Shown piece after piece: positions 1 through 13,031 of a DNA stretch of 64,000 nucleotides. The stretch is taken from assembly GCA_964348155.1 (NCBI GenBank), contig CAYGBN010000002.1, positions 3,520-67,519 of the forward strand, written 5' to 3'. Numbering within the stretch: the stretch's first letter is position 1; each line of letters begins with the position of its first letter. Made by a program: the position numbers and the translations under genes. A model generated the notes under the pieces. It had not been told where the DNA came from and did no database searches. It saw nothing but the letters and a program-made list of their open reading frames with translations. The stretch is from an uncultured Methanomassiliicoccales archaeon. Its GTDB lineage: Archaea; Thermoplasmatota; Thermoplasmata; RBG-16-68-12; JAJISG01.

Positions 1-666
1 CCGGCGGGGAACACGACCCTGGTGACGGGCACCTGCGGGACCGGGAAGACCTCCCTGAGCCTCGAGTTCATCCTTCACGGGGCGGAGGCGGGGGACGTGG
101 GCCTCTACATCTCGGCCACCGAGACCCCCGAGAAGCTCCTGGAGAGCATGATCCCCTACGACTTCTTTCACAAGAAGCTCCTGGACGAGGGGAAGGTGGA
201 GTTCATCGGGCTACCCGAGATCTACAAGGCGGCCAAGGTCGAGGGGCCGGAGATCGACGCCAAGGCGGCGGAGGCCCTTCTGAAGGCCGTGGTGGCCGCC
301 GTGAAGAAGCGGAAGGCGAAGCGCCTGGTCATCGACTCCGTCACCTCCGTGTGCGCCCGTCTCGGCACGACGGACCGCATTCGGGAGTTCATCACCGCCC
401 TGAGCCACGCCCTGGCCCAGGAGGGATGCACAGCGCTCCTGGTGTCGGAGGTGGCCGCCGGCGACGAGCGCTACTCCCCCTACGGGGTGGAGGAGGCCGT
501 GGCGGACGGGGTCATCCTCCTGGGGAACCGGGAGCGACGCGGCGACCTCCTGCGAACCCTGCAAATCGTGAAGATGCGGGGGACGTCCCACTCGCGGGCG
601 CGTTACATCCTCGACCTCACCTCCAGCGGGGTGCTGCTGGCGCCCCTCCTCAAGGGGGGCGGGTAG
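1..666 (+). CDS. KaiC-like RecA-superfamily ATPase (5' end truncated by window edge)
   Basis: Translation from nt 1 reads ...NTTLVTGTCGTGKTSLSLEF... (Walker A GTGKT), followed by a KaiC/RadA-like fold with a Walker B-like LVIDSVT. The reading frame is open to the window edge. Stop is TAG at 664-666. Confidence 0.8.
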   Translation, partial: PAGNTTLVTGTCGTGKTSLSLEFILHGAEAGDVGLYISATETPEKLLESMIPYDFFHKKLLDEGKVEFIGLPEIYKAAKVEGPEIDAKAAEALLKAVVAAVKKRKAKRLVIDSVTSVCARLGTTDRIREFITALSHALAQEGCTALLVSEVAAGDERYSPYGVEEAVADGVILLGNRERRGDLLRTLQIVKMRGTSHSRARYILDLTSSGVLLAPLLKGGG

Positions 667-667
667 G

Positions 668-1237
668 TTGGCCACCTCCCTGGAAAGCCTGGGAAGGCTG
701 CAGGAGCTCCCCCCGGGGTCCGCCGTCGCCCTGCAGACGGGGGCGGAGCACTACTTCGACGCCATCCAGGCCCTCCTGGACGCCTTCGCGCCCCAGAAGG
801 GGCTCCAGGCCGTCTACGTCACGAGCACCATCCCCTCTAAGTCCATCATCCAGGCCCTGGAGGTGCTGGAGGTGGACATGGCGAACATCTACTTCGTGGA
901 CTGCGTCAGCAGCATGATGATGGGGTTCAGCGAGAAGCACCCCCACGCGGTGTACGTGGAGAGCCCCACGATGCTGGAGAACACCCTGCTGAAGGTGGAG
1001 TTCCTCATCCGCAGGCTGGATGGCGCGGACACCGTCGTCATCGTGGACTCCATCAACTCGCTGGCCATCCACAACAGCATGAAGATCCTCTCCGAGTTCC
1101 TCCACATCCTCATCACCCACCTGCGGTCCCGCAACGCCTACACCGTCATTCTGTCGATGGAGGAGTACGCCACGGAGGAGGTGGAGAGCGTCCTCAGCCT
1201 GGTGTGCGACGAGACCGTGATTTTCAGCCTGGGTTGA
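668..1237 (+). CDS. Degenerate KaiC/RecA-like domain protein (no Walker A); possibly the second domain of the upstream KaiC-like gene
   Basis: 189-aa ORF with KaiC-domain-like layout (…AVYVTSTIPS…VVIVDSINSL…) but no P-loop. TTG start 1 nt after the upstream stop. Codon usage matches neighbouring genes. Confidence 0.55.
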   Translation: MATSLESLGRLQELPPGSAVALQTGAEHYFDAIQALLDAFAPQKGLQAVYVTSTIPSKSIIQALEVLEVDMANIYFVDCVSSMMMGFSEKHPHAVYVESPTMLENTLLKVEFLIRRLDGADTVVIVDSINSLAIHNSMKILSEFLHILITHLRSRNAYTVILSMEEYATEEVESVLSLVCDETVIFSLG

Positions 1238-1246
1238 GAACCACGG

Positions 1247-1777
1247 GTGAGAATGGCGGGAAAGCCTTTATCCCGCCCTTCGCGGGAGGTCTCCTTCGTA
1301 GGGAAACCTACAGGAGGACAGAACCTGAGAACGTATACGGCGATCCGAAGGGACCGGAAGGCCGTGTCGCCGGTGATCGCGACCATCCTTATGGTGGCGA
1401 TTACCGTCGTCCTGGCTGCCGTCCTGTACGTGATGGTATCAGGACTGGTCGGGAACCCCGGACAGACGCCGAGAGCCATCGGAGTGGCCGTTAGCAAGAC
1501 GGGCGACGGGTCCAACTGGGCCCTCACCCTCAGCGACGTACAGGTCAGCAAGGCCCCGTCGGCCATCTACCTGACCGTGTTCGCCGCCGACGGCAGCGTT
1601 TCCCTGACCCGGACCGCATTCGCGTCCCTCAGCGGCAACGAGACCTACGTGCAAGTCGGCAGCGGCAACGTCGCAGCGGGTGACAAGATTCTACTCGACG
1701 TCACCACGTACCCGGCCGGCTCCGAGTTCCAGATCTCGGACGACGACGGGATCCTAGCCCAGGGCACCCTGCAGTAG
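1247..1777 (+). CDS. Class III signal peptide protein (archaeal type IV pilin / archaellin-like)
   Basis: Contains RRDRKAVSPVIATILMVAITVVLAAVLYVMVSG, the classic archaeal prepilin/archaellin N-terminal hydrophobic domain. The true start may be internal: the 40 aa upstream of the motif look non-native. Confidence 0.65.
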   Translation: MRMAGKPLSRPSREVSFVGKPTGGQNLRTYTAIRRDRKAVSPVIATILMVAITVVLAAVLYVMVSGLVGNPGQTPRAIGVAVSKTGDGSNWALTLSDVQVSKAPSAIYLTVFAADGSVSLTRTAFASLSGNETYVQVGSGNVAAGDKILLDVTTYPAGSEFQISDDDGILAQGTLQ

Positions 1778-1965: not shown

Positions 1966-2523
1966 ATGCGTTGTGGCGACGAGGCTTTGACAATCCGGAT
2001 CGTGGCCTACCACGACGAGCGGTGCGACCCCAAGCGGTGCACATCGAAGAAGCTCGCCCGCCACGGCCTCCTGCGGCTGGTGCGTCGCCGCCGCCAGGTG
2101 CCCCGGGGGTCCATCCTCCTCCACCCGGAATCGGAGGTGGCTCTCTCCCCGGCGGACGCTCCGGCCGCGCAACGCCACGGTCTCGCTGTGCTGGACACCT
2201 CGTGGAAGACCGGGCGTTTTCCCCGGGTTTCGGGCACAAGTCACCGGGCTTTGCCCTTCCTCGTGGCGGCGAATCCCGTGAACTACGGCCGCCCGCAGGT
2301 TCTCTCCAGCGTGGAGGCCCTGGCGGCCGCCCTCGTCATCCTGGGGGAGGGGGACCAGGCCCAGGCTCTCCTGGCCAAGTTCAAGTGGGGTCCCACATTC
2401 CTGACGCTCAACGCGGAGCCCCTCCGGGCATACCGGGACGCGTCGAACAGCCGCCAGGTGGTCCTCGCCCAGGCGGACTTCACCGGAGGTCCGGGGGAAG
2501 GAGGTTCGGAATCCCGTCGGTGA
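1966..2523 (+). CDS. tsr3: Tsr3-family (DUF367) 16S/18S rRNA aminocarboxypropyltransferase
   Basis: …IRIVAYHDERCDPKRCTSKKLARHGL… matches the Tsr3 N-terminal Cys-rich signature. Start may be the TTG at 1987 (M-TIRIVAYH). Confidence 0.7.
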   Translation: MRCGDEALTIRIVAYHDERCDPKRCTSKKLARHGLLRLVRRRRQVPRGSILLHPESEVALSPADAPAAQRHGLAVLDTSWKTGRFPRVSGTSHRALPFLVAANPVNYGRPQVLSSVEALAAALVILGEGDQAQALLAKFKWGPTFLTLNAEPLRAYRDASNSRQVVLAQADFTGGPGEGGSESRR

Positions 2524-2656
2524 TCTCGTAGACCTCGTCGCAGGCAGGACAGAAGAGTTCCCCCTCCATAATCTCGTCCTCCTCCACAGCGACGCGGAGC
2601 TCCAGGTCCCCCTTGCACACGGGGCAGCAGAGGATGTCCATGAGATCCCGCTTCAT
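2480..2656 (-). CDS. Trm112-like small zinc-ribbon protein (58 aa)
   Basis: Minus-strand translation MKRDLMDILCCPVCKGDLELRVAVEEDEIMEGELFCPACDEVYEITDGIPNLLPPDLR, with the Trm112 signature (CPxC…C…C…DGIPNLL). Not in the ORF track (below 60 aa). Converges on and overlaps the tsr3 3' end by about 44 nt. Confidence 0.6.
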   Translation of the reverse strand: MKRDLMDILCCPVCKGDLELRVAVEEDEIMEGELFCPACDEVYEITDGIPNLLPPDLR

Positions 2657-2739
2657 GCGGGAGGGGACACCCGGGGGCGTCGCATAAACCCTTCGCTGGG
2701 GTCCCAGAAGCGCTGGGAAAACCGATATATAGCCGGCCC

Positions 2740-5700
2740 ATGTCGTTAGCCGAGCCAGGTGGGGGCGTGACCGACGAGGAAACCTTCCAGAAACGTCTGA
2801 ACTTCGCCCTCGTTCTGGGGGGGATCTTCGCCCTGGCCCTCTTCATCCGGTCATTCTTCGTCTACGACCTGGCCCTGCGGGACTTCCTTCTGTCGGGGGG
2901 ATCGGACGCCTTCTACTACCGCTGGACCATCGACCACATCGTCACCACGGGGACCCACCTCCTCCGTGACGGGATGCTCAACTACCCCCTGGGCATGAAC
3001 AACCCGCGTCCGCCGGTGTACGGGTGGAGCGTCTCCATCGTTGGCATGATGCTGGGCTACCTGCAAGGCTCCCTGGAGCTGGGGATCGCCCAGAGCTTCC
3101 TCTTCTCCACGGCCGTGTGGGGAGCCCTGACGATCTTTCCAACCTACTTCCTGGGGCGCGACATCTTCGGGCGGCGTGCGGGCCTGGTGGGAGCTTTCTT
3201 CCTGGCGCTGATGCCGGCCCACATCCAGCGCTCCCCCCTGAGCAACGGCGACCACGACGCCCTGGTCCTCTTCTTCGTGGTGACGGCCTTCTACTTCTTC
3301 CTCCGGGCCCTCCGGGAGCTGAGACAGGAGGAGTGGGTCACTCGATGGACGAGCCCTCGCGCCGTCGTGCGGGGACTTCGCCAGCTCCTCCTGGGGAACC
3401 GAAGGACGATCCTCTTCTCCGTCATGGCGGGGACGGCCGTGGCCGCCGTGGCCCTGACCTGGCAGGGCTGGGCCTACGTCCCCGTGGTCATCATGGCCTA
3501 CTTCATCGTTCAGCTCCTCGTCCACCAGGTCCGGAACGAGGACCCCCTGGGCGTGCTGCTGGCCTTCACCGTCACCCTGGGAACCGGGGTGCTCCTGGCG
3601 GCCCCCTACTACGTGGCCACGGGCTTCGTTCGCACCTGGTTCGACATTCCCCTGATCCTGTTCGTCGCCTCCATCGGGCTGGGGTTGCTGTTCACCGTTT
3701 TCCATCGGCTCCCGTGGGTCCTGGTCATTCCCCCGGTGCTCCTGGGGTTCACCGGCGGCCTGGCCATCGCCTCGTTCTACAGTCCGGCCGTGGCCAACGC
3801 CCTAACCTCCGGCTTCGGCTACTTCGCCCCCAACAAGGTCTTCGAGACCATCGCAGAGGCGCAGCCGCCGGAGCTCAGCCAGGCCATCCTCTCCTTCGGC
3901 GCCGTCGCCTACTACCTGGCCATCTTCGGCATCGGCTGGATGGCCATCCAGTTCGTGCGGCGGCCGCGGGCGGACTACCTGTTCGCCCTGGCCTGGAGCG
4001 CGGCCGCCATCTTCATGGCCATGTCCGCCGTCCGCTTCATCTTCAACGCCTCCCCCGCCTTCGCCCTCACCTCCGCGTGGATCACGGTCCTCCTGGTGGA
4101 GCGGCTGGGATTCGAGCAGCTTCGCCGGACGGTCACCGCCTCCGGGGGTAGCCGGCTCACGGCCCTCCGAAAGGGGGTGAAGGCCCGCCACGTGGCGGGG
4201 GCGGCCTTCGTCGCCCTCCTCCTCGTCCTCCCCAACGTGTGGTACGGCGTGGACGCCGCCATCCCCTTCGAACGGAAGGCCGAGCTGGACCAGCAGGTGT
4301 ACAACGCGATTCCCGCCCCCCTCCAGCCGGGGGGCTACCAGGAGGGGAGCCTCTTCTACTTCGGGGCCTTCGGCTACAACCTTCCCATGAAGAACACCTA
4401 CTTCCCCCAGGCGTGGGAGTGGTTCCGAACCCAGGACGCGGAGGTCTTCCCCCTCACGGACCGTCCCGCCTTCCTGAGCTGGTGGGACTACGGCTTCGAG
4501 GCCATCGAGGAAGGGCGCCACCCCACGGTGGCCGACAACTTCCAGAACGGGTTCGAGTACGCGGGCCACTTCTTGCTGGCCCAGAGCGAGAACGAGGGAA
4601 TCGCTGTCCTGAACGTCCGTCTTCTCCACGGCGACCTGGTGGAGCATGGCGGCGCCCTCGGCAGCGACGTCCAGGCGATCCTGCTGGCCCACGGCCTGGA
4701 GCCGGACCTTGTCCGCGACGTCCTGGAGCGGCCCACGATCTACATCCCCATCATCAAGGCGGATCCCGACCGCTTCGGCCAGTGGGACGCCCAGATCTCC
4801 CGCCGAAACGCCCGCGTCATCTACCTGAAGGCCCTCCTCACGGAGACCCTGGACCTGGACCTCCAGGCGGCGCTCTACCGGCAGCTGCGCATGGCCACGG
4901 GCCACAGCGTGGACTACTTCGCGGTGGACTCCCGCCTGGTGCCCTTCTCCGGCTCGAACACCGGGATCTTCTACGCCCCCGTGAAGCTGACGGACCACCG
5001 CACGGCGGAGCTGGCGGGGCTCCGGAGCGTCCCGGTGGACTTCTACCGCCTCCTGGCGGAGACCACGGACGGGCGGACGTTCGAACTCCAGGACGTGCCC
5101 CCCGCCGCCCAGATTGCCAACGTCCGCATCGTATACACGGAGATGTTCTACAACAGCATGCTCTACCGCATCTTCTTCGGGCAGAAGGGGAGCGACGTGG
5201 GGCTGGAGGACGAGGGGCTCCCCGCCATCGCGCCCCCCCTGGACGGACAGACCCCGCTCCACGGTTACATGCTGAAGCACTTCCAGCTGGCGTACCGGAC
5301 GGCGTACTACAACCCCCACCCCCCGCAGGAGGTCCTCAACTTCACGGAGGAGTGGACGGCGGTGGGCCTGTTCGAGGCCCAGGACCTCCAGGAGCAGATC
5401 GCCGCGGGGGAGGCGGTGGGGACGGTGGACGTCTCCCCGTCCGTGGCCCTCCGACAGGGCATCGTCGTGCTGCGCTTCTACGACGGGGCGATCCTTCAGG
5501 GCCGCGTCACTGCGGAGGACGGGCGTCCCCTGGAGGGCGTCCGCATCACCGTCCTGGACGAGGAAGGGATCCCCCACGACACGGAGTTCACCGACGCCCA
5601 AGGGGACTACCAGGTGCTCATGCCCTCGGGCGAGGTTCGCGTGGTGGCTTCCACGGGAGACCTTATCGGGCAGTCCCGGACGGGCAGCACTCTCCTAGGG

Positions 5701-8700
5701 GATGTGACCCTTTTCGTCCGGAAGGACCAGGCGGCCCGCGTGCCGCAGGACCGGGACGGGGACGGCCGCCTGGACTACCAGGTCCGTCAGGATTTCACGG
5801 TCCCCGCCTCCACCCTCCGCGGGGTCGTCTTCGCGGACGGAAACCGGAACGCGGGGAGGGAGGGGGGGGAGGGGGGGCGGGGGGGCCTCGGGGGGGAGGT
5901 GCGGGATGGCGACGGGAACGTCGCGGGGGCGGGGATTACGGGGGCGGACGGAGTTTACGAGATCGCGGGACTCCTTCCCGGGGACTACAGCGTCGTCCTC
6001 CTGCGGGACGACAGCCAGCTGGAGGAGGAGGACGTAACCCTCATCTTGGGCCAGGCGACGACCCACGACCTGGACCTTCCGGCCGGGCACCTCTTGGGGA
6101 CCCTGCGCGATGAGTACGGGCTCCCCGCGGTCGGGGGCGTGGTCGACATCGTGGAGGACGCCACGGGGCGACGTTGGACCGTGCCGGTGGACGAGGAGGG
6201 GGCCTTCGACGCGGCGGGGCTTGTGGAGGGCAACTACACGATACAGGGCTTTCTGGGGGCGCGGGAGTCCCTTCCCGAGCGCGTGCGGATCCCACGAGGA
6301 CTGAACGCCTCCCGGGACCTGGTTGCGAAGCCCCTTGGTGCGGTCGAGGGCCGCATCTTCGTGGCCTTCCAGCCCGCCCCCCACGCGAGCGTGTGGCTGC
6401 AGCCCCGAAAAATCCCCACGCCCGTGGCTCTCCAAGCCGACGCCGAGGGCCGATTCCAGGCGTCCCTCCCCGTTGGAACCTACGACGCCTACGCCCTCCA
6501 CTACCGGGCTGCTGAGCCCCACAGCTTCCTGGGCGTCCTCACGGTGGCGGAGGGCGCCGTTCAGACCTGGGACATCTTCCTGCAGCCCGCGGTTCACGTG
6601 TCCGGCCGGGTGACCCTGGCGGACGCCGGGGAGCCCGGCGTGTCCGTCACCTTCGCCCAGGGTGAGGCCTCCCGCACGGCCACCACGGGCGACACGGGCG
6701 ACTACGCCCTCCACCTGCCCAAGGGGCTCTACCGGGTGTGGGCCCTGCACCCCGAGGGGCAGTACGTCGCCAGCCACAGCCTCGGCGGGACCGCCCGGCT
6801 GGACCTCCGCCTGGCGGAGGCCGACTCTGCGGAGGGGCGGGTCTTCTACGACCGCAACGGCAACGGCACCTGGGACCCCGGGGAGGGAGTGGAGGGAGTG
6901 CGCCTCCAGTTCGTGGAGGAGGGCGGAGTCGCCTTCCGTCTCGACGCCGGGGCGGAGGGGACGTACATGGTGTCCCTCCTCCCCGGGACGTCGTACACGC
7001 TGAAGGTGGAGGAGGCCGGCTTCCTTCCCCTCTCCCTGGGCCCCTTCACGTCCGTCACCTTCCTCCCCCAGACCAATCTGGAGCTTCGACCGGAGCCCGT
7101 GGACGTGGACGGCACCCTGGTCCCCCTGGACGCCCTGGACCTGGAGGGGACGCCCGTCGCCTTTGCCCCCCTGGGGGACGGGGCGGAGGCAGCGGAGGCG
7201 ACGGCGGACGCGAGCGGCGCCTTCGTCGTGGACCTGCTGCCGGGGCTGTACGCCGTGGAGGTAGACGCCCCCGAGGACGGGGACGAGGCCGTCCGGATCC
7301 AGCTCCCGGAAGTGCGGACCCTGCGCATTCCCGTGGGGAAGGGGAACACGACCCTGGCCGTCGAGGTCGTGAAGCGCGTGCAGCTCAACGGCAGCCTGGA
7401 GGTGGCCGGAGGTCCAATGCAGGGGGCCCTGCTCCTCCAGGGGCCCGAGGAGCTCGAGGTGAGCGTGGACGGGAACTACACCGTCCTCCTGCGACCGGGC
7501 AACTACACCCTGTTCGGCGGCGCCTTCGCCGGCGGGTTGCCGTATGTCCTGCTGGAGCGCCTCAGCGTCACCGCCCCGACCACGTTCAACGCCTCCCTCA
7601 CGCCCGCGGCCCAGGTGGACGGCCGCGTGACCGTGGAAGGGCAGGCCCCCCCCGCGGCCATGGATCTCACCTTCCTCCGGACGGACGGCGCGAGTCTGAC
7701 CCTGCGGACGGACGCTCAGGGCGGCTACGAGGCGATCCTGGCCCCGGGCAACTACACCGTCTCCCTCGCCTGGCAGGGAGTGGACGGCGTGGACGGGCCC
7801 CTCCGGTTCGTGCGCTACAGCCTGAGCCAGGAGGTCGCCTTAGAGGCGGAAGAGGTCCGGACCCTAGACCTTCCCGTGGTCCGCACGCTCGAAAACGCCA
7901 CCCTGGAGGGGCGCGTCCTCCTGGGCGGGATGCCGGCGTCCGCCCAGGTCACCTTCGAGGCCGCCAACGCCACGGCCATGGACGCGTCCCTGGTCACCGG
8001 CGGCACCTTCACAGTCGCCCTCGCCCCCGGCCGGTACAACGTCTACGTCTTCCGGGAGACGGGGAAGACGGTCAGCCTCTCGTCGCTTCTCGTCCAGCCG
8101 GGAACGAGCAACGAGGTGACGCTCCTCCTGGAGTCGGGCTACCGCGTGGCCGGCATCGTGTCCCTCCCCGACGGGAGCCGAACGACCACGACCCTCACCT
8201 TCGCCGCGGAGGCGAGCGTGAACGTCACCACGGACGCCGCGGGGGTCTACGAGGCCTATCTCCCGGCGGGGACGTACGCTCTAGCGGCCCGGGTCCAGCG
8301 CACGGAGCGCGGCGTTCCCGTGGAGTACAGCCTGGAGGAGGAGTTCGTCCTCGTCGCGAGCACGACCCGTAACCTGCAGCTGGCGCGGCGCGACGACCCC
8401 GCCGTCACCCTGGCGTGGGACGTCCAGCAGCGGGCGACGGTGTCCGCGGGGAGCGTCGTGGACTACACCCTAACCCTCCGGAACACAGGGAACGTGGACG
8501 ACCGCTACGGGATGACGGCCTCCGTCCCGGGTTGGACCTTCGACTTCAAGCCACGTAGGGTGACCCTACCCTTCGGCCAGGACAACGAGGCCGTCGTGGA
8601 GGTGCGCATCACCACGCCTCCCGACGCTCTGGTGGAGCATCCCTCCCTGGTGGTGGAGGCCGCCTCCCTCCTGGGGACGGGGTCGCGGGACCTCCTCTCG

Positions 8701-9228
8701 GTGGACGTGGACATCCTCCAGGTTCGGCGCATCGACCTCCGTTTGGCCGCCCAACCCCCCACCCTCTCTCCCGAAGCCCTGGAGCTCCCCGTGGAGCTGG
8801 TCAATCCCGGGAACGGCCCGGACGTCTACAACGTGATCCTCACGAACCCGCAGACCCTGGAGACCCAGGGTTGGCGAGCCGAGCTCCAGGTGGACGCCGA
8901 GGGGAGGGGGACCGCCGCGGAGGGACTGGCGGTCGCGGCCAGCGAGACGCGTGTCGTCACCCTCCGGCTGGAGGTCGTGGGGGCCGTGGGGCCCACCCGG
9001 GCCCTCCTGCGGGCCTTCTCCCAGGACGACTCCAGGGTGGAGACGTTGCTGGAGGTCCCCGTGGTCTTCCCGTCCCTCTCCATCCCCGTGGAGGACGTGG
9101 TCCTGGACGGCCCCAACGTCCGTTTGGGGGCCCCTTCCTTCCCCGTGTTCCTCTACGGGTCCCTGGCCGCCGCGGCCGCCCTCGTGGCCATCCTCCTCCT
9201 CACACGCCGCCGGAGGTCGCGTCGATGA
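2740..9228 (+). CDS. aglB: AglB/STT3 oligosaccharyltransferase (N-terminal ~900 aa) fused to a ~1250-aa C-terminal array of carboxypeptidase-regulatory-like/CARDB beta-sandwich repeats, with a C-terminal TM anchor
   Basis: Multi-TM N-terminus and the WWDYG catalytic motif (FLSWWDYGFEAIEEGRHPTVADNF). About 10 repeats of the G.Y…L.PG.Y.V type follow (GDYQVLMPSGEVRV, GVYEIAGLLPGDYSVVLL, GDYALHLPKGLYRVWAL, and others). There are two CARDB-like segments (RNTGNVDDRYGM…, VNPGNGPDVYNV…). The C-terminus is …VAILLLTRRRRSRR. Confidence 0.85.
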   Translation: MSLAEPGGGVTDEETFQKRLNFALVLGGIFALALFIRSFFVYDLALRDFLLSGGSDAFYYRWTIDHIVTTGTHLLRDGMLNYPLGMNNPRPPVYGWSVSIVGMMLGYLQGSLELGIAQSFLFSTAVWGALTIFPTYFLGRDIFGRRAGLVGAFFLALMPAHIQRSPLSNGDHDALVLFFVVTAFYFFLRALRELRQEEWVTRWTSPRAVVRGLRQLLLGNRRTILFSVMAGTAVAAVALTWQGWAYVPVVIMAYFIVQLLVHQVRNEDPLGVLLAFTVTLGTGVLLAAPYYVATGFVRTWFDIPLILFVASIGLGLLFTVFHRLPWVLVIPPVLLGFTGGLAIASFYSPAVANALTSGFGYFAPNKVFETIAEAQPPELSQAILSFGAVAYYLAIFGIGWMAIQFVRRPRADYLFALAWSAAAIFMAMSAVRFIFNASPAFALTSAWITVLLVERLGFEQLRRTVTASGGSRLTALRKGVKARHVAGAAFVALLLVLPNVWYGVDAAIPFERKAELDQQVYNAIPAPLQPGGYQEGSLFYFGAFGYNLPMKNTYFPQAWEWFRTQDAEVFPLTDRPAFLSWWDYGFEAIEEGRHPTVADNFQNGFEYAGHFLLAQSENEGIAVLNVRLLHGDLVEHGGALGSDVQAILLAHGLEPDLVRDVLERPTIYIPIIKADPDRFGQWDAQISRRNARVIYLKALLTETLDLDLQAALYRQLRMATGHSVDYFAVDSRLVPFSGSNTGIFYAPVKLTDHRTAELAGLRSVPVDFYRLLAETTDGRTFELQDVPPAAQIANVRIVYTEMFYNSMLYRIFFGQKGSDVGLEDEGLPAIAPPLDGQTPLHGYMLKHFQLAYRTAYYNPHPPQEVLNFTEEWTAVGLFEAQDLQEQIAAGEAVGTVDVSPSVALRQGIVVLRFYDGAILQGRVTAEDGRPLEGVRITVLDEEGIPHDTEFTDAQGDYQVLMPSGEVRVVASTGDLIGQSRTGSTLLGDVTLFVRKDQAARVPQDRDGDGRLDYQVRQDFTVPASTLRGVVFADGNRNAGREGGEGGRGGLGGEVRDGDGNVAGAGITGADGVYEIAGLLPGDYSVVLLRDDSQLEEEDVTLILGQATTHDLDLPAGHLLGTLRDEYGLPAVGGVVDIVEDATGRRWTVPVDEEGAFDAAGLVEGNYTIQGFLGARESLPERVRIPRGLNASRDLVAKPLGAVEGRIFVAFQPAPHASVWLQPRKIPTPVALQADAEGRFQASLPVGTYDAYALHYRAAEPHSFLGVLTVAEGAVQTWDIFLQPAVHVSGRVTLADAGEPGVSVTFAQGEASRTATTGDTGDYALHLPKGLYRVWALHPEGQYVASHSLGGTARLDLRLAEADSAEGRVFYDRNGNGTWDPGEGVEGVRLQFVEEGGVAFRLDAGAEGTYMVSLLPGTSYTLKVEEAGFLPLSLGPFTSVTFLPQTNLELRPEPVDVDGTLVPLDALDLEGTPVAFAPLGDGAEAAEATADASGAFVVDLLPGLYAVEVDAPEDGDEAVRIQLPEVRTLRIPVGKGNTTLAVEVVKRVQLNGSLEVAGGPMQGALLLQGPEELEVSVDGNYTVLLRPGNYTLFGGAFAGGLPYVLLERLSVTAPTTFNASLTPAAQVDGRVTVEGQAPPAAMDLTFLRTDGASLTLRTDAQGGYEAILAPGNYTVSLAWQGVDGVDGPLRFVRYSLSQEVALEAEEVRTLDLPVVRTLENATLEGRVLLGGMPASAQVTFEAANATAMDASLVTGGTFTVALAPGRYNVYVFRETGKTVSLSSLLVQPGTSNEVTLLLESGYRVAGIVSLPDGSRTTTTLTFAAEASVNVTTDAAGVYEAYLPAGTYALAARVQRTERGVPVEYSLEEEFVLVASTTRNLQLARRDDPAVTLAWDVQQRATVSAGSVVDYTLTLRNTGNVDDRYGMTASVPGWTFDFKPRRVTLPFGQDNEAVVEVRITTPPDALVEHPSLVVEAASLLGTGSRDLLSVDVDILQVRRIDLRLAAQPPTLSPEALELPVELVNPGNGPDVYNVILTNPQTLETQGWRAELQVDAEGRGTAAEGLAVAASETRVVTLRLEVVGAVGPTRALLRAFSQDDSRVETLLEVPVVFPSLSIPVEDVVLDGPNVRLGAPSFPVFLYGSLAAAAALVAILLLTRRRRSRR

Positions 9229-9992
9229 AAGCACGCGCTCTCGTCCCGCTGCTCCTCCTTCTCCCCCTCCTCCCCTGGGGAGTGCAGGGCCAGGGGCCCG
9301 TCGCCGTCTTCATCACCGCGCCGGACGCCGCGGGGACGGGGGACACCATCGTGGTCAACGTGACGGCGGCCGGAGGGCCTGCGGAGGAGGGGGGGACCTA
9401 CGAGCTGCGGGCCTTCCTCCGGGGGCCCGGCGACCTGACGGGGGCCTCCCCGGTGGAGGAGGGCCCGCTCCAGGAGAGCTCGGAGAACAACACGTTCTCC
9501 TTCAACGTGACCATGCCCCTGGAGGAGCAGGAGGTGGAGCTCGTGGTGGTGGTCAATTCCACGAAGGATGACACGTGGGTGGAGGGCGAGGCCACGAAGC
9601 GCATCAGGGCCCTGGTCCCCCTGCGCATCTCCGCGCGGGTGGTGAACACGGGCTCCGTGGAGGTGCGGAATGTGCCCGTGTACCTCTACCTGGACGGGAC
9701 GCTGGTGGACGAGACCGCCCTCGTCGTTCTGGGACCCTCGTCGTCGGTGACGGTGAGCTTCCGCTACCTTCCTGTGAACCTCGCGCCGGGGTCCCACACC
9801 CTGGAGATCCGCGTGGACATCAACGGGGACGGCGTGGTGGACCCGGCCCTGGGAGAGGTGTTGCGGCGGGTGACCTTCGTAAGGGAGGCGGAGCCCATCA
9901 ATCCCCTGTGGATCATCCTGGGGGCGGTGGGGGCCTTCGTGGCGGCCCTCTTCGTCGGGGGCTACATCCGGCAGCGGCGGCGCGGGCGCTAG
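9225..9992 (+). CDS. Signal-peptide protein with a CARDB-like domain and a C-terminal TM/basic anchor; start overlaps the aglB stop (ATGA)
   Basis: MKARALVPLLLLLPLLPWGVQG signal peptide. CARDB-like segment RVVNTGSVEVRNVPVYLYLDGTLVDETALVVLGPSSSVTVSF. C-terminal …WIILGAVGAFVAALFVGGYIRQRRRGR. The ATG at 9225 overlaps the aglB TGA at 9226-9228. Confidence 0.55.
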   Translation: MKARALVPLLLLLPLLPWGVQGQGPVAVFITAPDAAGTGDTIVVNVTAAGGPAEEGGTYELRAFLRGPGDLTGASPVEEGPLQESSENNTFSFNVTMPLEEQEVELVVVVNSTKDDTWVEGEATKRIRALVPLRISARVVNTGSVEVRNVPVYLYLDGTLVDETALVVLGPSSSVTVSFRYLPVNLAPGSHTLEIRVDINGDGVVDPALGEVLRRVTFVREAEPINPLWIILGAVGAFVAALFVGGYIRQRRRGR

Positions 9993-10627
9993 TCCTCGCC
10001 CAGCTTCTCCAAGCGCCGCTCCAGCTCGTAGCTCCGAAGGGCCACGGCCACCTCTCCCCTGGTCTTCTCCAGGAGGCCGCGAGCGATGTCCTGCTTCCGC
10101 TTGACGGCCACCAGCGCCGTGGGGTGGTGGAAGCGCATGAGGCCGTCGTAGAGGACCTCCATCGCCTCCAAGGCCTCCATCGCCCGAGGCACCTCGCCCT
10201 CCTTCAGGCACTCCAGGGCGTGCCGTCGCAACTCCCCCACCACATCCCCCAGCCCCAGAAGGTAGGCGTTGGGGGTGACGGCTAGGTCTCGGGGGGTGGG
10301 GAGGGGGGTCCCGTGGATGAGGCTCTGGGCCACGGCCGCCTCCGTCATGTCCTGCTGGGCGTTCTCCACGAAGCCCGCGTGGTAGATGTCCGGGTGGTCC
10401 TTCAGCAGGCTCCGGAGCCTGAGGGCCTCCTCCCGGGCCTTCTCTAGGGGCCCGCCGACGTCGCCGTCGCCGTGGAGGGCCCCTAGGGCGCCCACGGACA
10501 GGCGGGCCACCGCCCGACTGGACTTCAGGGCGAGCTCCCGCACGGTGTCCTTCTCCTCCAGCACCGCCTCGACCTCGTCCAGAATCGCCTGCAGTTCCCT
10601 CCTCCGCTTCTCGTCCAGCAGGGGCAC
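9989..10627 (-). CDS. Translin/TRAX-family protein
   Basis: C-terminal half AYLLGLGDVVGELRRHALECL…LYDGLMRF…LVAVKRKQDIARGLLEKTRGEVAVALRSYE resembles the TRAX/translin conserved block (YLLGIADLTGELMR … KKL..L…L.K.E). GTG start at 10625-10627, 2 nt after the purD stop. The upstream part of the 315-aa track ORF is Arg-rich artefact overlapping purD. Confidence 0.55.
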   Translation of the reverse strand: MPLLDEKRRRELQAILDEVEAVLEEKDTVRELALKSSRAVARLSVGALGALHGDGDVGGPLEKAREEALRLRSLLKDHPDIYHAGFVENAQQDMTEAAVAQSLIHGTPLPTPRDLAVTPNAYLLGLGDVVGELRRHALECLKEGEVPRAMEALEAMEVLYDGLMRFHHPTALVAVKRKQDIARGLLEKTRGEVAVALRSYELERRLEKLGED

Positions 10628-10628
10628 G

Positions 10629-11969
10629 CTACTCCCCCCGGAGCGCCCGCATCCGCTCCACCTTCCTCTCCACCGACCACGCCTTCCCGATGTCGTGGCG
10701 CATGGTGACGCGCCCCTGCACGTGGGTGAGCCCCTTCTCGGCCAGGGCCTCTGCCTCGGGGAGGTCCTCCGCCACACCCACCACGGCCAGGGTCCGAGAC
10801 GTGGTGGTGAACAGCCCCCCGTTCCTCTCGTCGACGGCGGCGTAGTACAGGCGGGCGCCCCCCTCCCGCACCGCCGCCTCGTTGACGTGGACCTCCTGGT
10901 CCGCCAGGGACTTCGTCCCGTATCCTTCGGGGACAACGTACTTGCACACCGTGGCCCGGGGACGGAAAGCGACGCGCTCTCCCAGTCGGCCGTCCACGAT
11001 GGCCATGCACACCTCCACGAAGTCCTCCGTCAGGATGGGGAGGACGTTCATGGCCTCCGGATCGCCGAAGCGGGCGTTGAACTCCAAGACCTTGGGCCCC
11101 TCGGGGGTGAGGATGAAGCCGCCGTAGAGCACGCCCTTGTAGGGACGCCCCTCGGCGCGCAGGGCCTCCACCACGTTCCGCATGATGGCCACGGCGGCGT
11201 CGTAGTCCCTCCGGGGGAGGAAGGGAAGCAGCCCGTCGGCGGCGGAGATGGAGCCCATGCCGCCCGTGTTCGGCCCTTCGTCCCCCTCCCGGGCGCGCTT
11301 GTAGTCCTGGACGGCGGGCATGGGGGCGACGTGCTGTCCGTCGGTGAAGGCCTGCAAGGAGAACTCCTCCCCCTCCTCCCGCCGCTCAATGAGGACGCGG
11401 GCCTCGCCGCCAATGCGCTTCTCCAGAACCTCCTGGACGTACGCCAGCGCCTCCTCCCGCGTGTGGAAGTGGTCCCCCATGACCCGAACCCCCTTTCCCC
11501 CCGTGAGGCCGATGGGCTTCACGACGACGGGGGTCTCGGTCTCCTTGAGGTGCTGCTTCGCCGCCTCGATGTCGCCAAAGGCGCGGTACGCCACCTGGCC
11601 GGGGACGCCGTGATGCCGCATGAGGTCCCGGGCGAACTCCTTGGAGAGCTCGATCTGGGCCGCCTTCCGCGAGGGGCCCACGGTGGGGATCCCGGCGGCC
11701 TCCAGGCGGTCCACGAGGCCGTAGCCCAGCGGGGCCTCGGGTCCCACGACGGCCAGGTCCACGTCCATGGCCTCCCCCCACGCCACGACCTTCGCCACGT
11801 CGTTCTCATCGTGCAGGCGCACCTCCTCCGCCTCCCGCGCGATCCCCGGGTTGCGGTTCTTCATGACGGCGTAGACGCGGGCGTCGCTCCGCCGAAGGGC
11901 CTCCACGATGGCGTGCTCCCTTCCTCCCCCGCCAATGGCCAGGACCTTCAAGGGACCACGGCTCCCCAA
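10629..11969 (-). CDS. purD: Phosphoribosylamine--glycine ligase
   Basis: VLAIGGGGREHAIVEAL…ATP-grasp…FNARFGDPE… over the full length of PurD. Confidence 0.9.
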   Translation of the reverse strand: MGSRGPLKVLAIGGGGREHAIVEALRRSDARVYAVMKNRNPGIAREAEEVRLHDENDVAKVVAWGEAMDVDLAVVGPEAPLGYGLVDRLEAAGIPTVGPSRKAAQIELSKEFARDLMRHHGVPGQVAYRAFGDIEAAKQHLKETETPVVVKPIGLTGGKGVRVMGDHFHTREEALAYVQEVLEKRIGGEARVLIERREEGEEFSLQAFTDGQHVAPMPAVQDYKRAREGDEGPNTGGMGSISAADGLLPFLPRRDYDAAVAIMRNVVEALRAEGRPYKGVLYGGFILTPEGPKVLEFNARFGDPEAMNVLPILTEDFVEVCMAIVDGRLGERVAFRPRATVCKYVVPEGYGTKSLADQEVHVNEAAVREGGARLYYAAVDERNGGLFTTTSRTLAVVGVAEDLPEAEALAEKGLTHVQGRVTMRHDIGKAWSVERKVERMRALRGE

Positions 11970-11990
11970 CCCAGGGGCACGTTAAAACGT

Positions 11991-12866
11991 TTAGGGGGGG
12001 CCCTGTCCGGCGGCCACCGTGTTCTTCAGGAGCATGGCCACGGTCATGGGCCCCACGCCTCCGGGGACGGGGGTGATGGCCCCCGCCACCCGGGACACCG
12101 CGTCGAAATCCACGTCCCCCACGATGCGGTACCCCCGGGGGGCCTCCGGGTCGGGCACCCGGTTGATGCCGACGTCCACCACCACGGCTCCCGCCTGGAC
12201 CATCTCCGCCCCGACCAGCCCCGGGCGCCCCGCGGCCACCACCAGGATCTCCGCCCGTCGCGCGTGGTCCTCCAGCCGCGCCGTGTGCGAGTGGCACACC
12301 GTCACCGTGGCGTTTCCTCCCTCCGCCTTCTGCATGAGAAGCGCCGCCAGGGGCTTGCCCACCAGGCCGCTTCGCCCGACGATGACCACGTCCTTCCCTT
12401 CGGGGGGATGGCCCGAACGAAGGAGGAGCGTCTGGATGCCCAGGGGAGTCGCCGGGACGAAGGTGGGACTGCCCGCCAGCAGCCGCCCCATGCTGACCGG
12501 GTGAAAGCCGTCCACGTCCTTCGCGGGGGCCACGGCTCCCAGGGCCGCTTGCTCGGACAGGTGGGGCGGAAGGGGCCGCTGGACCAAGATGCCGTGCACG
12601 GAGGGGTCCTCGTTCAGGCCGTCGATGCGGGCCTGCAGCTCCCGCTGGGATGCATCCGCCGGCAGCCGCTCCACGCGGGATGTGATGCCCACCTCCCGGC
12701 TCGCCCTCCGCTTGGTCTCGACGTAGATCCGGGAGGCAGGGTCATCGCCCACCAGGACGGCAGCCAGTCCCAGGACCACGCCCTCCCGCCCGAGGCCCGC
12801 CACCTCCTCCTTCACCTCCTGGCGGATGCGGCGGGCTAGGGCCCTCCCGTCGATGATCTCGGCCAT
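11991..12866 (-). CDS. folD: Bifunctional methylenetetrahydrofolate dehydrogenase/cyclohydrolase
   Basis: MAEIIDGRALARRIRQEVKEEV…GLAAVLVGDDPASRIYV…KDVDGFHP…VIVGRSGLVGKPLAALL… Start assigned to the internal ATG (MAEIIDGRAL). The upstream 26 codons of the track ORF are unlikely to be translated. Confidence 0.9.
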   Translation of the reverse strand: MAEIIDGRALARRIRQEVKEEVAGLGREGVVLGLAAVLVGDDPASRIYVETKRRASREVGITSRVERLPADASQRELQARIDGLNEDPSVHGILVQRPLPPHLSEQAALGAVAPAKDVDGFHPVSMGRLLAGSPTFVPATPLGIQTLLLRSGHPPEGKDVVIVGRSGLVGKPLAALLMQKAEGGNATVTVCHSHTARLEDHARRAEILVVAAGRPGLVGAEMVQAGAVVVDVGINRVPDPEAPRGYRIVGDVDFDAVSRVAGAITPVPGGVGPMTVAMLLKNTVAAGQGPP

Positions 12867-13031
12867 GGATCTCACGACGAAACCGCGGCCTTCGGTTAAG
12901 GCTTCCCTCGACGGAGCGGAGGGAGCGGCGGAAAAAGGTGCCAAATGGGTGGGGTTTCAAGGAGGGGGGAGGTTGCCCATTTGACACCCGTCAGTATTCT
13001 ACCGGACGCCTGGATATAAAGCTTTGTCCAC

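Follow-up and report, generated by a model that had tools for sequence, protein, structure and literature searches.

A giant AglB with a thirteen-domain beta-sandwich array and a predicted second membrane anchor in Thermoplasmata

AglB, the archaeal oligosaccharyltransferase (OST), is generally regarded as a single-subunit enzyme of ~600–1050 residues. What, then, might an AglB of 2162 residues do with the additional length, and is such a protein real, rare or common? We investigated these questions for a gene located at positions 2740..9228, on the forward strand, of a 64,000-nucleotide stretch of DNA from an uncultured Methanomassiliicoccales archaeon (GenBank assembly GCA_964348155.1, contig CAYGBN010000002.1, positions 3,520 to 67,519; this whole stretch is called the window). 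We found that its product joins an AglB/STT3 core (residues 1–914) to 11 transthyretin-like domains, two CARDB/DUF11-like domains, a transmembrane (TM) helix and a terminal RRRRSRR. Our preferred reading, which we hold with about even confidence, is that the protein is an active AglB carrying a fixed-length, glycosylated and doubly anchored arch or spacer that works together with the product of a conserved partner gene.

The AglB core, its stalk and the C-terminal helix

The gene is a single open reading frame (ORF) running from ATG to TGA, with 2162 codons and the stop at 9226–9228. The protein contains no cysteine and ends in ...LYGSLAAAAALVAILLLTRRRRSRR. Its GC content at third codon positions (GC3) is ~0.9 overall and 0.86–0.97 in each 150-codon block, with no break at the junction between the core and the stalk, as we call the 1248-residue extension (residues 915–2162). 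In an alignment with 118 full-length homologues, all are colinear with the query and gaps amount to ~0–3% per 50-residue block over all 2162 positions. The ORF listing, the translation, the codon composition and the homologues together confirm that the gene is real, that its ORF is intact and that the anatomy described in the original prediction was correct. A single ORF with an AglB (STT3) core, ~1250 residues of beta-sandwich array and a second anchor is borne out by the ORF, by Pfam and by AlphaFold2, and the counts given there, over ten prealbumin-like repeats and a pair of CARDB-like modules besides a TM segment with RRRRSRR, were accurate (11 and 2 domains, with the helix at residues 2131–2156).

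The core begins with a multi-span GT-C membrane domain (residues 1–510, 2740..4269), which is matched by the Pfam models STT3 (residues 56–466, E = 1.9e-14) and PMT_2. It continues into an extracellular C-terminal globular domain (residues 511–914, 4270..5481) that carries WWDYG at residues 581–585 (nucleotides 4480–4494) and matches the structures of AglB C-terminal domains 3vgp and 3vu0. Residues 45–604 align by phmmer with Archaeoglobus fulgidus AglB-L (AfAglB-L; 3waj/5gmy), and the motifs of the two proteins stand in register: GGSD56 faces GGND, D171-H172-D173 faces NDHH, T370-I-A-E373 faces TIAE, and WWDYG faces WWDYG. These catalytic motif residues are invariant or nearly so in the family (T370, I371, E373 and WWDYG are invariant), and the exact WWDYG is present in 318 of 319 giant homologues. 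The Pfam model AglB_core-like matches this protein weakly and matches 13 of 23 family members.

An AlphaFold2 model of residues 1–1010 (pLDDT, the predicted local distance difference test score, 84.9; predicted template modelling score, pTM, 0.79) contains a bundle of ~13 TM helices and a mixed alpha/beta globular domain. Its best PDB match by Foldseek is AfAglB-L (7e9s_A, E = 1.7e-23, TMt 0.65), followed by human and yeast STT3 (STT3A/B) and then by PglB. Four features of STT3/AglB/PglB membership are present (a 13-TM GT-C domain, the acidic loop residues and second motif, a TIXE-type motif and WWDYG), and sequence and model together indicate that residues 1–914 are a complete and probably active AglB.

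Over these residues, the giant AglB and AfAglB-L (3WAJ, 3WAK, 5GMY and 7E9S) share the same fold and order of elements, a 13-TM GT-C domain followed by an extracellular WWDYG domain, even though their sequence identity is only ~16%. AfAglB-L, however, has one membrane domain and ends after the globular domain, whereas the giant AglB continues for another 1248 residues to a second TM anchor and has a conserved partner gene. The length comparison made in the original prediction therefore stands, as AfAglB-L chains have 875 residues versus 2162 here. AfAglB-L has been described as a single-subunit enzyme (PMC3703281).

The stalk consists of 13 domains of two types. D1 (CarboxypepD_reg, residues 915–996) and the conserved DxDGDG linker that follows it, up to residue 1011, occupy 5482..5772. 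D2–D11 (residues 1012–1880, 5773..8379) are ten sequon-rich, transthyretin-like beta-sandwiches, of which D2 and D6 are SdrD-B-like with DxNGNG/DGDG loops, and D12–D13 (residues 1886–2110, 8395..9069) are a membrane-proximal CARDB/DUF11-like pair with NxGN motifs; all lie on the forward strand. The AlphaFold2 model of residues 915–2114 (mean pLDDT 90.4, no segment below 50) contains 13 successive beta-sandwiches joined by very short linkers, and D1 has a pLDDT above 90 both here and in the core model. Comparing family sub-alignments with hhalign, we found that D1–D11 are mutually homologous, mostly at 90–99% probability. D12 matches D13 at 97%, while either of them matches D1–D11 at 3% or less, so that they represent a second domain type.

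Profile searches assign the two types as follows. Over the whole extension, Pfam reports CarboxypepD_reg (E = 9.8e-51 over ten stretches) and SdrD_B (E = 9.4e-21); D1 alone matches CarboxypepD_reg with E = 2.1e-10. When D1–D10 are scanned singly, CarboxypepD_reg is the best model in seven and SdrD_B is the best for D2 and D6, while D8 has no Pfam match. The D12–D13 region produces weak Pfam or NCBIfam matches to HYDIN_VesB_CFA65-like_Ig, DUF7507, choice-of-anchor T and a DUF11 repeat, including weak Ig-like Pfam matches around residues 1887–1963, and five of its residues (N1915, G1917, N2022, G2024 and N2025) do not vary among family members. A Foldseek search of the whole 1200-residue stalk model against the PDB was uninformative, returning only generic multi-Ig proteins (HYDIN, NUP210, alpha-2-macroglobulins and BaTIE) at TM scores of ~0.1. 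By tblastn of the 64-kb window, a second AglB or a stalk paralogue was sought and only self-matches were obtained; the internal stalk repeats have diverged beyond mutual match at E < 1e-3.

Conservation, measured as the mean frequency of the commonest residue, differs along the chain. D1 (0.60) is about as conserved as the core (0.61–0.63 over residues 1–914), followed by D12 (0.54, residues 1886–1996), while D2–D11 have the lowest values (0.40–0.48); D13 (residues 1997–2110) has a mean of 0.44. Within the stalk, two acidic stretches are conserved in the family, the DxDGDG linker that follows D1 and, at D6, a DxNGNGxxDxGEG loop; both kinds of loop (DxDGDG/DxNGNG) look to us like those with which SdrD B repeats bind Ca. 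The stalk also contains 12 N-x-S/T sequons, as compared to 3.3 ± 1.7 expected from its composition. Across the family the mean is 17.7 sequons per stalk versus 8.2 expected, with enrichment in all 118 of 118 members, and the sequon at N1719 is kept in 110 of the 118. Taken from sequences and models, these features fit an extracellular, N-glycosylated and semi-rigid array.

The chain closes with a second membrane anchor (residues 2131–2162, 9130..9225), composed of a hydrophobic helix and the RRRRSRR tail and located by hydropathy and by its homologues. Residues 2131–2156 are the sole hydrophobic segment beyond residue 509, with a hydropathy peak of 2.46. Every aligned homologue terminates in a hydrophobic helix followed by 3–7 Arg/Lys, and the C-terminal helix and basic tail are present in 315 of 318 giant homologues (at least 2000 residues, with WWDYG). 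According to the positive-inside rule, the RRRRSRR tail would be cytoplasmic, which is consistent with a stalk located outside, like the C-terminal domain of every AglB. With this topology, the polypeptide would be tethered at both ends to the same membrane.

The partner gene and the AglB family

Directly behind AglB, on the same strand, a partner gene (9225..9992) begins with a start codon that overlaps the AglB stop by 4 nt (ATGA). In its translation of 255 residues, a signal peptide precedes two beta-sandwich domains (one of them CARDB, Pfam E = 8.9e-11), a TM helix and an RQRRRGR tail; its GC3 is 0.93, and its first domain has a weak similarity to D12 (hhalign, 81%). The partner gene is located directly downstream of AglB in 69 of 83 related loci. 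It is present in loci whose AglB is only 34–56% identical, and it is also found in a Methanomassiliicoccus luminyensis-type locus (L085). Even behind a distant AglB of 2110 residues, whose core is 31% identical (L084), the partner is present with a 4-nt overlap (partner hidden Markov model, E = 2.6e-43). These genomic comparisons indicate that the giant AglB and its partner are a two-gene module conserved over deep divergence, and the overlapping codons indicate that the partner is translationally coupled to AglB.

As a separate observation, the partner protein is 100% identical to an NCBI entry (P0282), and the best database match of the 2162-residue AglB has at most 69% identity. We also considered a thioredoxin of 107 residues that follows the partner gene in locus L085 (12437..12760, forward strand) and has a weak Pfam match to OST3_OST6. 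We rejected it as an OST subunit because it is of the plain cytoplasmic WCGPC type without a signal peptide and occurs neither in the window nor in other loci.

We next consider how widespread this architecture is. A database search found at least 120 clusters of 2140–2205 residues that match at 34–69% identity and 97–99% query coverage. Scanning one genome per GTDB species yielded 340 related loci. Each of the best 80 bears one of the labels Thermoplasmata, Thermoplasmatota, Methanomassiliicoccales or Methanomassiliicoccaceae, and these loci match over the full length wherever the contig permits. With a metagenome-assembled genome (MAG) of Methanomassiliicoccus as the seed, a further search found 562 relatives. 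Among the proteins that we fetched, 318 have at least 2000 residues and WWDYG; their median length is 2167 residues, and 258 of the 318 fall between 2100 and 2199. The isolate M. luminyensis has a member of 2173 residues (WP_081579967.1) under the database name 'carboxypeptidase regulatory-like domain-containing protein', and a MAG protein of 2169 residues (OPY34830.1) is already named AglB. Judged by these sequences, the giant form is the usual AglB across Thermoplasmata/Methanomassiliicoccales, and the gene in the window is an ordinary member.

The original prediction had called the architecture unusual and possibly undescribed. It is unusual in that the protein has more than twice the size of AglB-L, and we found no published description of it in the literature, subscription-only AglB surveys being outside our reach. 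It is not rare, however, as homologues of the full architecture are common across a large clade. The giant AglB is a large family that is mostly filed under generic database names and is apparently undescribed in the literature.

Searching with the core alone (residues 1–900) against 1.84 billion representatives produced 1220 matches with E ≤ 1e-3, of which 298 have E ≤ 1e-30. Of the complete proteins within the best 150 matches, nearly all have 2000–2775 residues, with multiple transthyretin-like domains, usually two CARDB-like domains, and a C-terminal anchor. A separate class of ~1125–1290 residues (among P0229–P0260; examples are P0246, P0243 and P0232) has a core that is 36–39% identical and carries the same kinds of CarboxypepD_reg/SdrD_B domains after the WWDYG domain. 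Its members have only 2–4 such domains, however, and lack the CARDB pair, the C-terminal TM helix and the basic tail. These shorter forms may be an ancestral or a reduced state. On the basis of these alignments, appending CarboxypepD_reg/SdrD_B domains to AglB appears as a trait of the clade, with the 13-domain, doubly anchored form as its commonest elaboration. Other subfamilies reach 2400–2775 residues, and in some of them additional sequence separates the TM domain from the WWDYG domain.

A proposed arch and its alternatives

As sequence and models indicate, the AglB-L-like enzyme of this high-GC Thermoplasmata archaeon continues outside the membrane into 11 transthyretin-like and two CARDB-like domains and then returns via a 14th TM helix. 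If both ends are embedded in the cytoplasmic membrane, the array of 13 domains can only run as a loop or arch, with a contour of ~40–50 nm and a height of up to ~20 nm as estimated from typical Ig-domain dimensions. The arch would probably be N-glycosylated, and its two SdrD-B-like modules of the Ca-binding type may stiffen it. Because D1 is as conserved as the core, we assign it tentatively to the catalytic head. D2–D11 would then be a spacer of fixed length, as their sequences drift while the number of domains stays constant in the ~2160-residue family, whose alignment is almost free of gaps. D12–D13 and the C-terminal helix would be a membrane-proximal foot, pairing with the co-translated CARDB membrane protein of 255 residues.

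Such an arch could act as a scaffold or ruler at the surface of mostly wall-less cells, positioning the OST and organising the glycoprotein coat while leaving the chemistry of glycan transfer unchanged. Most Thermoplasmatales are wall-less (PMC5155288). We infer a function of this kind for the stalk, and its role as an envelope scaffold or ruler is speculative.

Several observations weigh against this arrangement. The pTM of the stalk model is only 0.50, so that the model leaves the overall path of the chain unfixed. The core (residues 1–1010) and the stalk (residues 915–2114) were modelled separately, and the placement of the two anchors relative to each other lies outside both models. Within the enzyme itself, the DK/MI motif, which contributes to the pocket for the +2 Ser/Thr and has the consensus DxxKxxx(M/I) or the variant E<>KxxxM/I/P (PMC3703281), had no confident placement; an obvious Lys is missing from the conserved stretch AQxE617xxAIALLxxR627. 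Finally, the existence of subfamilies of 2000–2775 residues and of anchorless forms of ~1125–1290 residues means that one universal 'ruler' length fails across the clade.

A different explanation draws on the eukaryotic secretory machinery. The stalk could be an accessory module fused in cis to the enzyme, similar to NOMO in the BOS complex or to the ribophorins. With the CARDB partner added, the result would be a multi-component OST that docks at or fences the Sec translocon and takes charge of acceptor proteins that are nascent or unfolded, a role in substrate recruitment in place of that of a passive spacer. When the family profile was compared with all PDB sequences, the best match was human NOMO2 (9c7v_B, E = 1.6e-29) at 105 bits, exceeding AglB itself at 86 bits. 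Among 23 family members, the NOMO-specific Pfam models NOMO_5th and NOMO1-like_9th match 17 and 10, respectively. The architecture is alike as well: in NOMO1/2/3 (PDB 9C7V), ~12 tandem Ig/transthyretin-like domains precede a single TM helix and a short tail at the C-terminus, while the giant AglB has 13 domains and then its own C-terminal TM helix, with a tail that is short and basic. The conserved and translationally coupled membrane partner would suit a multi-component enzyme.

Published work describes NOMO as a string of 12 Ig-like beads that ends in a C-terminal TM helix with a short tail; the width of the endoplasmic reticulum (ER) lumen or the spacing of ER sheets depends on the length of the protein, whose membrane-proximal domains contact nicalin and TRAP (PMC8327139; bioRxiv 10.1101/2023.11.28.569136). 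BOS sits behind Sec61 at the site that is otherwise taken by OST, a location that favours the comparison, and BOS components are stated to be absent from prokaryotes (PMC9630114).

Further analysis of the NOMO matches shows that they do not correspond domain by domain. The alignments are out of order (query residues 1381–1556 with NOMO 56–232, 1056–1296 with 270–521, and 1036–1216 with 887–1081), and each stretch scores 23–43 bits and spans 2–3 domains. Thus, the summed score largely reflects the many tandem copies of a single domain type. In the single-domain scans of D1–D10, CarboxypepD_reg or SdrD_B was best in 9 of 10 and a NOMO model never was, D8 having none, and the structure searches gave NOMO no special rank. 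NOMO is also a type I protein that stands alone and has its own signal peptide, while the array of the giant AglB is fused to an enzyme and has none. The partners of NOMO are nicalin and TMEM147; the conserved partner here is a CARDB protein. From these sequence comparisons, the resemblance is at the level of domain superfamily and overall architecture only.

Ribophorin I/II and OST48 place lumenal beta-sandwich domains on single TM anchors beside STT3. The foot of the stalk and the CARDB partner would occupy a comparable position, which is a purely architectural analogy: neither sequence nor structure gave a match to these subunits, and no OST accessory subunit family is among the Pfam matches of the stalk or of the partner. 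Overall, we consider an accessory module of this kind unlikely, though not negligibly so. The stronger form of the idea, in which the giant AglB and its partner are a true multi-component OST, the arm does the job of BOS/NOMO or of the ribophorins, and the stalk is a prokaryotic relative of NOMO, is a long shot.

The stalk could alternatively be a surface appendage that attaches to surfaces, to other cells or to an outer layer, such as an S-layer or the second membrane of M. luminyensis. SdrD-type B repeats and CnaB-like domains are the usual stalks of bacterial adhesins. The Pfam SdrD_B matches of D2 and D6, and the conserved DxDGDG and DxNGNG loops of the stalk, recall the B-repeats of Staphylococcus aureus SdrD (4JDZ, 10PS), with acidic loops alike. 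SdrD, however, is an adhesin of a Gram-positive bacterium, anchored through LPXTG and carrying a ligand-binding A domain at its N-terminus. The giant AglB has neither an A domain nor LPXTG, and both of its ends are membrane-embedded; the whole-protein model MSCRAMM_SdrD (NF012181) scores 14.5 bits against a cut-off of 2500.

The far end of the stalk, moreover, has no distal domain of the A type and consists of a TM helix with a positive-inside tail, hence there is no free tip. The number of domains is fixed, whereas in adhesins it is variable. The envelopes of cultured relatives point both ways: M. luminyensis is reported to have two membranes, while Methanomethylophilus alvi has a single membrane and neither a cell wall nor an S-layer (PMC10673518). 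An adhesin is therefore quite improbable, and the tether to the S-layer that the original prediction had suggested fares poorly for the same two reasons, the membrane anchor at the distal end of the array and the lack of an S-layer in M. alvi. The other suggestion of the original prediction, a scaffold that recruits substrates, may hold.

It is less probable still that the C-terminal helix is cleaved off as a sorting signal of the archaeosortase/exosortase type, which would leave the stalk lipid-anchored or released. The tripartite look of a hydrophobic helix and basic tail at the extreme C-terminus suggests such a signal. So does the best NCBIfam model of the core, archaeo_STT3 (TIGR04154), which describes an STT3 subfamily associated with the archaeosortase A system. 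The match to this model is limited to residues 24–625 and scores 211 bits, far under the cut-off of 450, and therefore the core appears related to the subfamily but is not a member of it. In PGF-CTERM and its relatives a signature motif stands directly before the helix, while no conserved motif is found upstream of the C-terminal helix across the 118 homologues of the giant AglB. The NCBIfam sorting-domain models match the last 50 residues at sub-threshold scores only (Loki-CTERM, E = 0.071; MYXO-CTERM, E = 0.076). We rejected the sorting signal on account of these sub-threshold matches and the unconserved residues before the helix.

That the long ORF is an assembly chimera, a frameshift product or a read-through of AglB and a separate surface protein is practically out of the question, because its unusual length is the sole point in favour, while GC3 is uniform over the junction and the same colinear architecture recurs in more than 300 independent homologues of full length, which stem from many different assemblies and sources, an isolate genome among them; the earlier worry about a chimera at ~5400–5600 is thereby refuted.

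Neighbouring genes and biological meaning

Upstream of AglB, the window contains two adjacent genes for KaiC-like ATPases (22..666 and 668..1237) and then an archaeal type IV pilin gene (Pilin_N, 1247..1777), all on the forward strand. The KaiC-like pair and the pilin are syntenic in a locus of a Thermoplasmata MAG (L001), but not in Methanomassiliicoccales loci. A small Trm112-like ORF (MKRDLMDILCCPVCKGDLEL..., ~2520..2668, reverse strand) is divergent from AglB. In the 71-bp intergenic region between them (2669..2739), a TATA-like ACCGATATATAGCC closely precedes the ATG of AglB.

Downstream, a translin-family gene (9992..10936, reverse strand) directly follows the partner gene and occupies the same position in L001, L002 and L085. 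An ATG ORF of 817 residues on the forward strand (10386..12839) is spurious, with a GC3 of 0.78, a GC content at first codon positions of 0.86, a composition rich in Arg, Pro and Gly, and no Pfam match. The real genes opposite to it on the reverse strand are purD (10629..11969) and folD (11991..12944), assigned by synteny with L001, and an MTHFR gene lies beyond them; the gene order of the window matches that of L001. No glycosylation gene cluster adjoins AglB in the window, and an Rfam scan of the window gave no match.

The clade that carries the giant AglB includes Methanomassiliicoccales, an order of methanogens of the human gut and the rumen. As predicted here, its AglB departs from the usual enzyme in having more than 2100 residues, in being anchored at both ends of a glycosylated 13-domain array and in having a small membrane protein as its partner. 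An array that handles substrates would represent the first accessory module of an OST in prokaryotes. If the multi-component reading were true, it would overturn both the single-subunit view of archaeal OST and the absence of BOS-type components in prokaryotes, and the parallel with NOMO offers a concrete but still weak hypothesis on the origin of the bead arrays of the ER lumen. A role as spacer or scaffold, on the other hand, would make the array one of the parts from which wall-less Thermoplasmata build their poorly understood envelopes. The idea can be tested experimentally through cultured organisms that are expected to carry the gene, among which M. luminyensis does.

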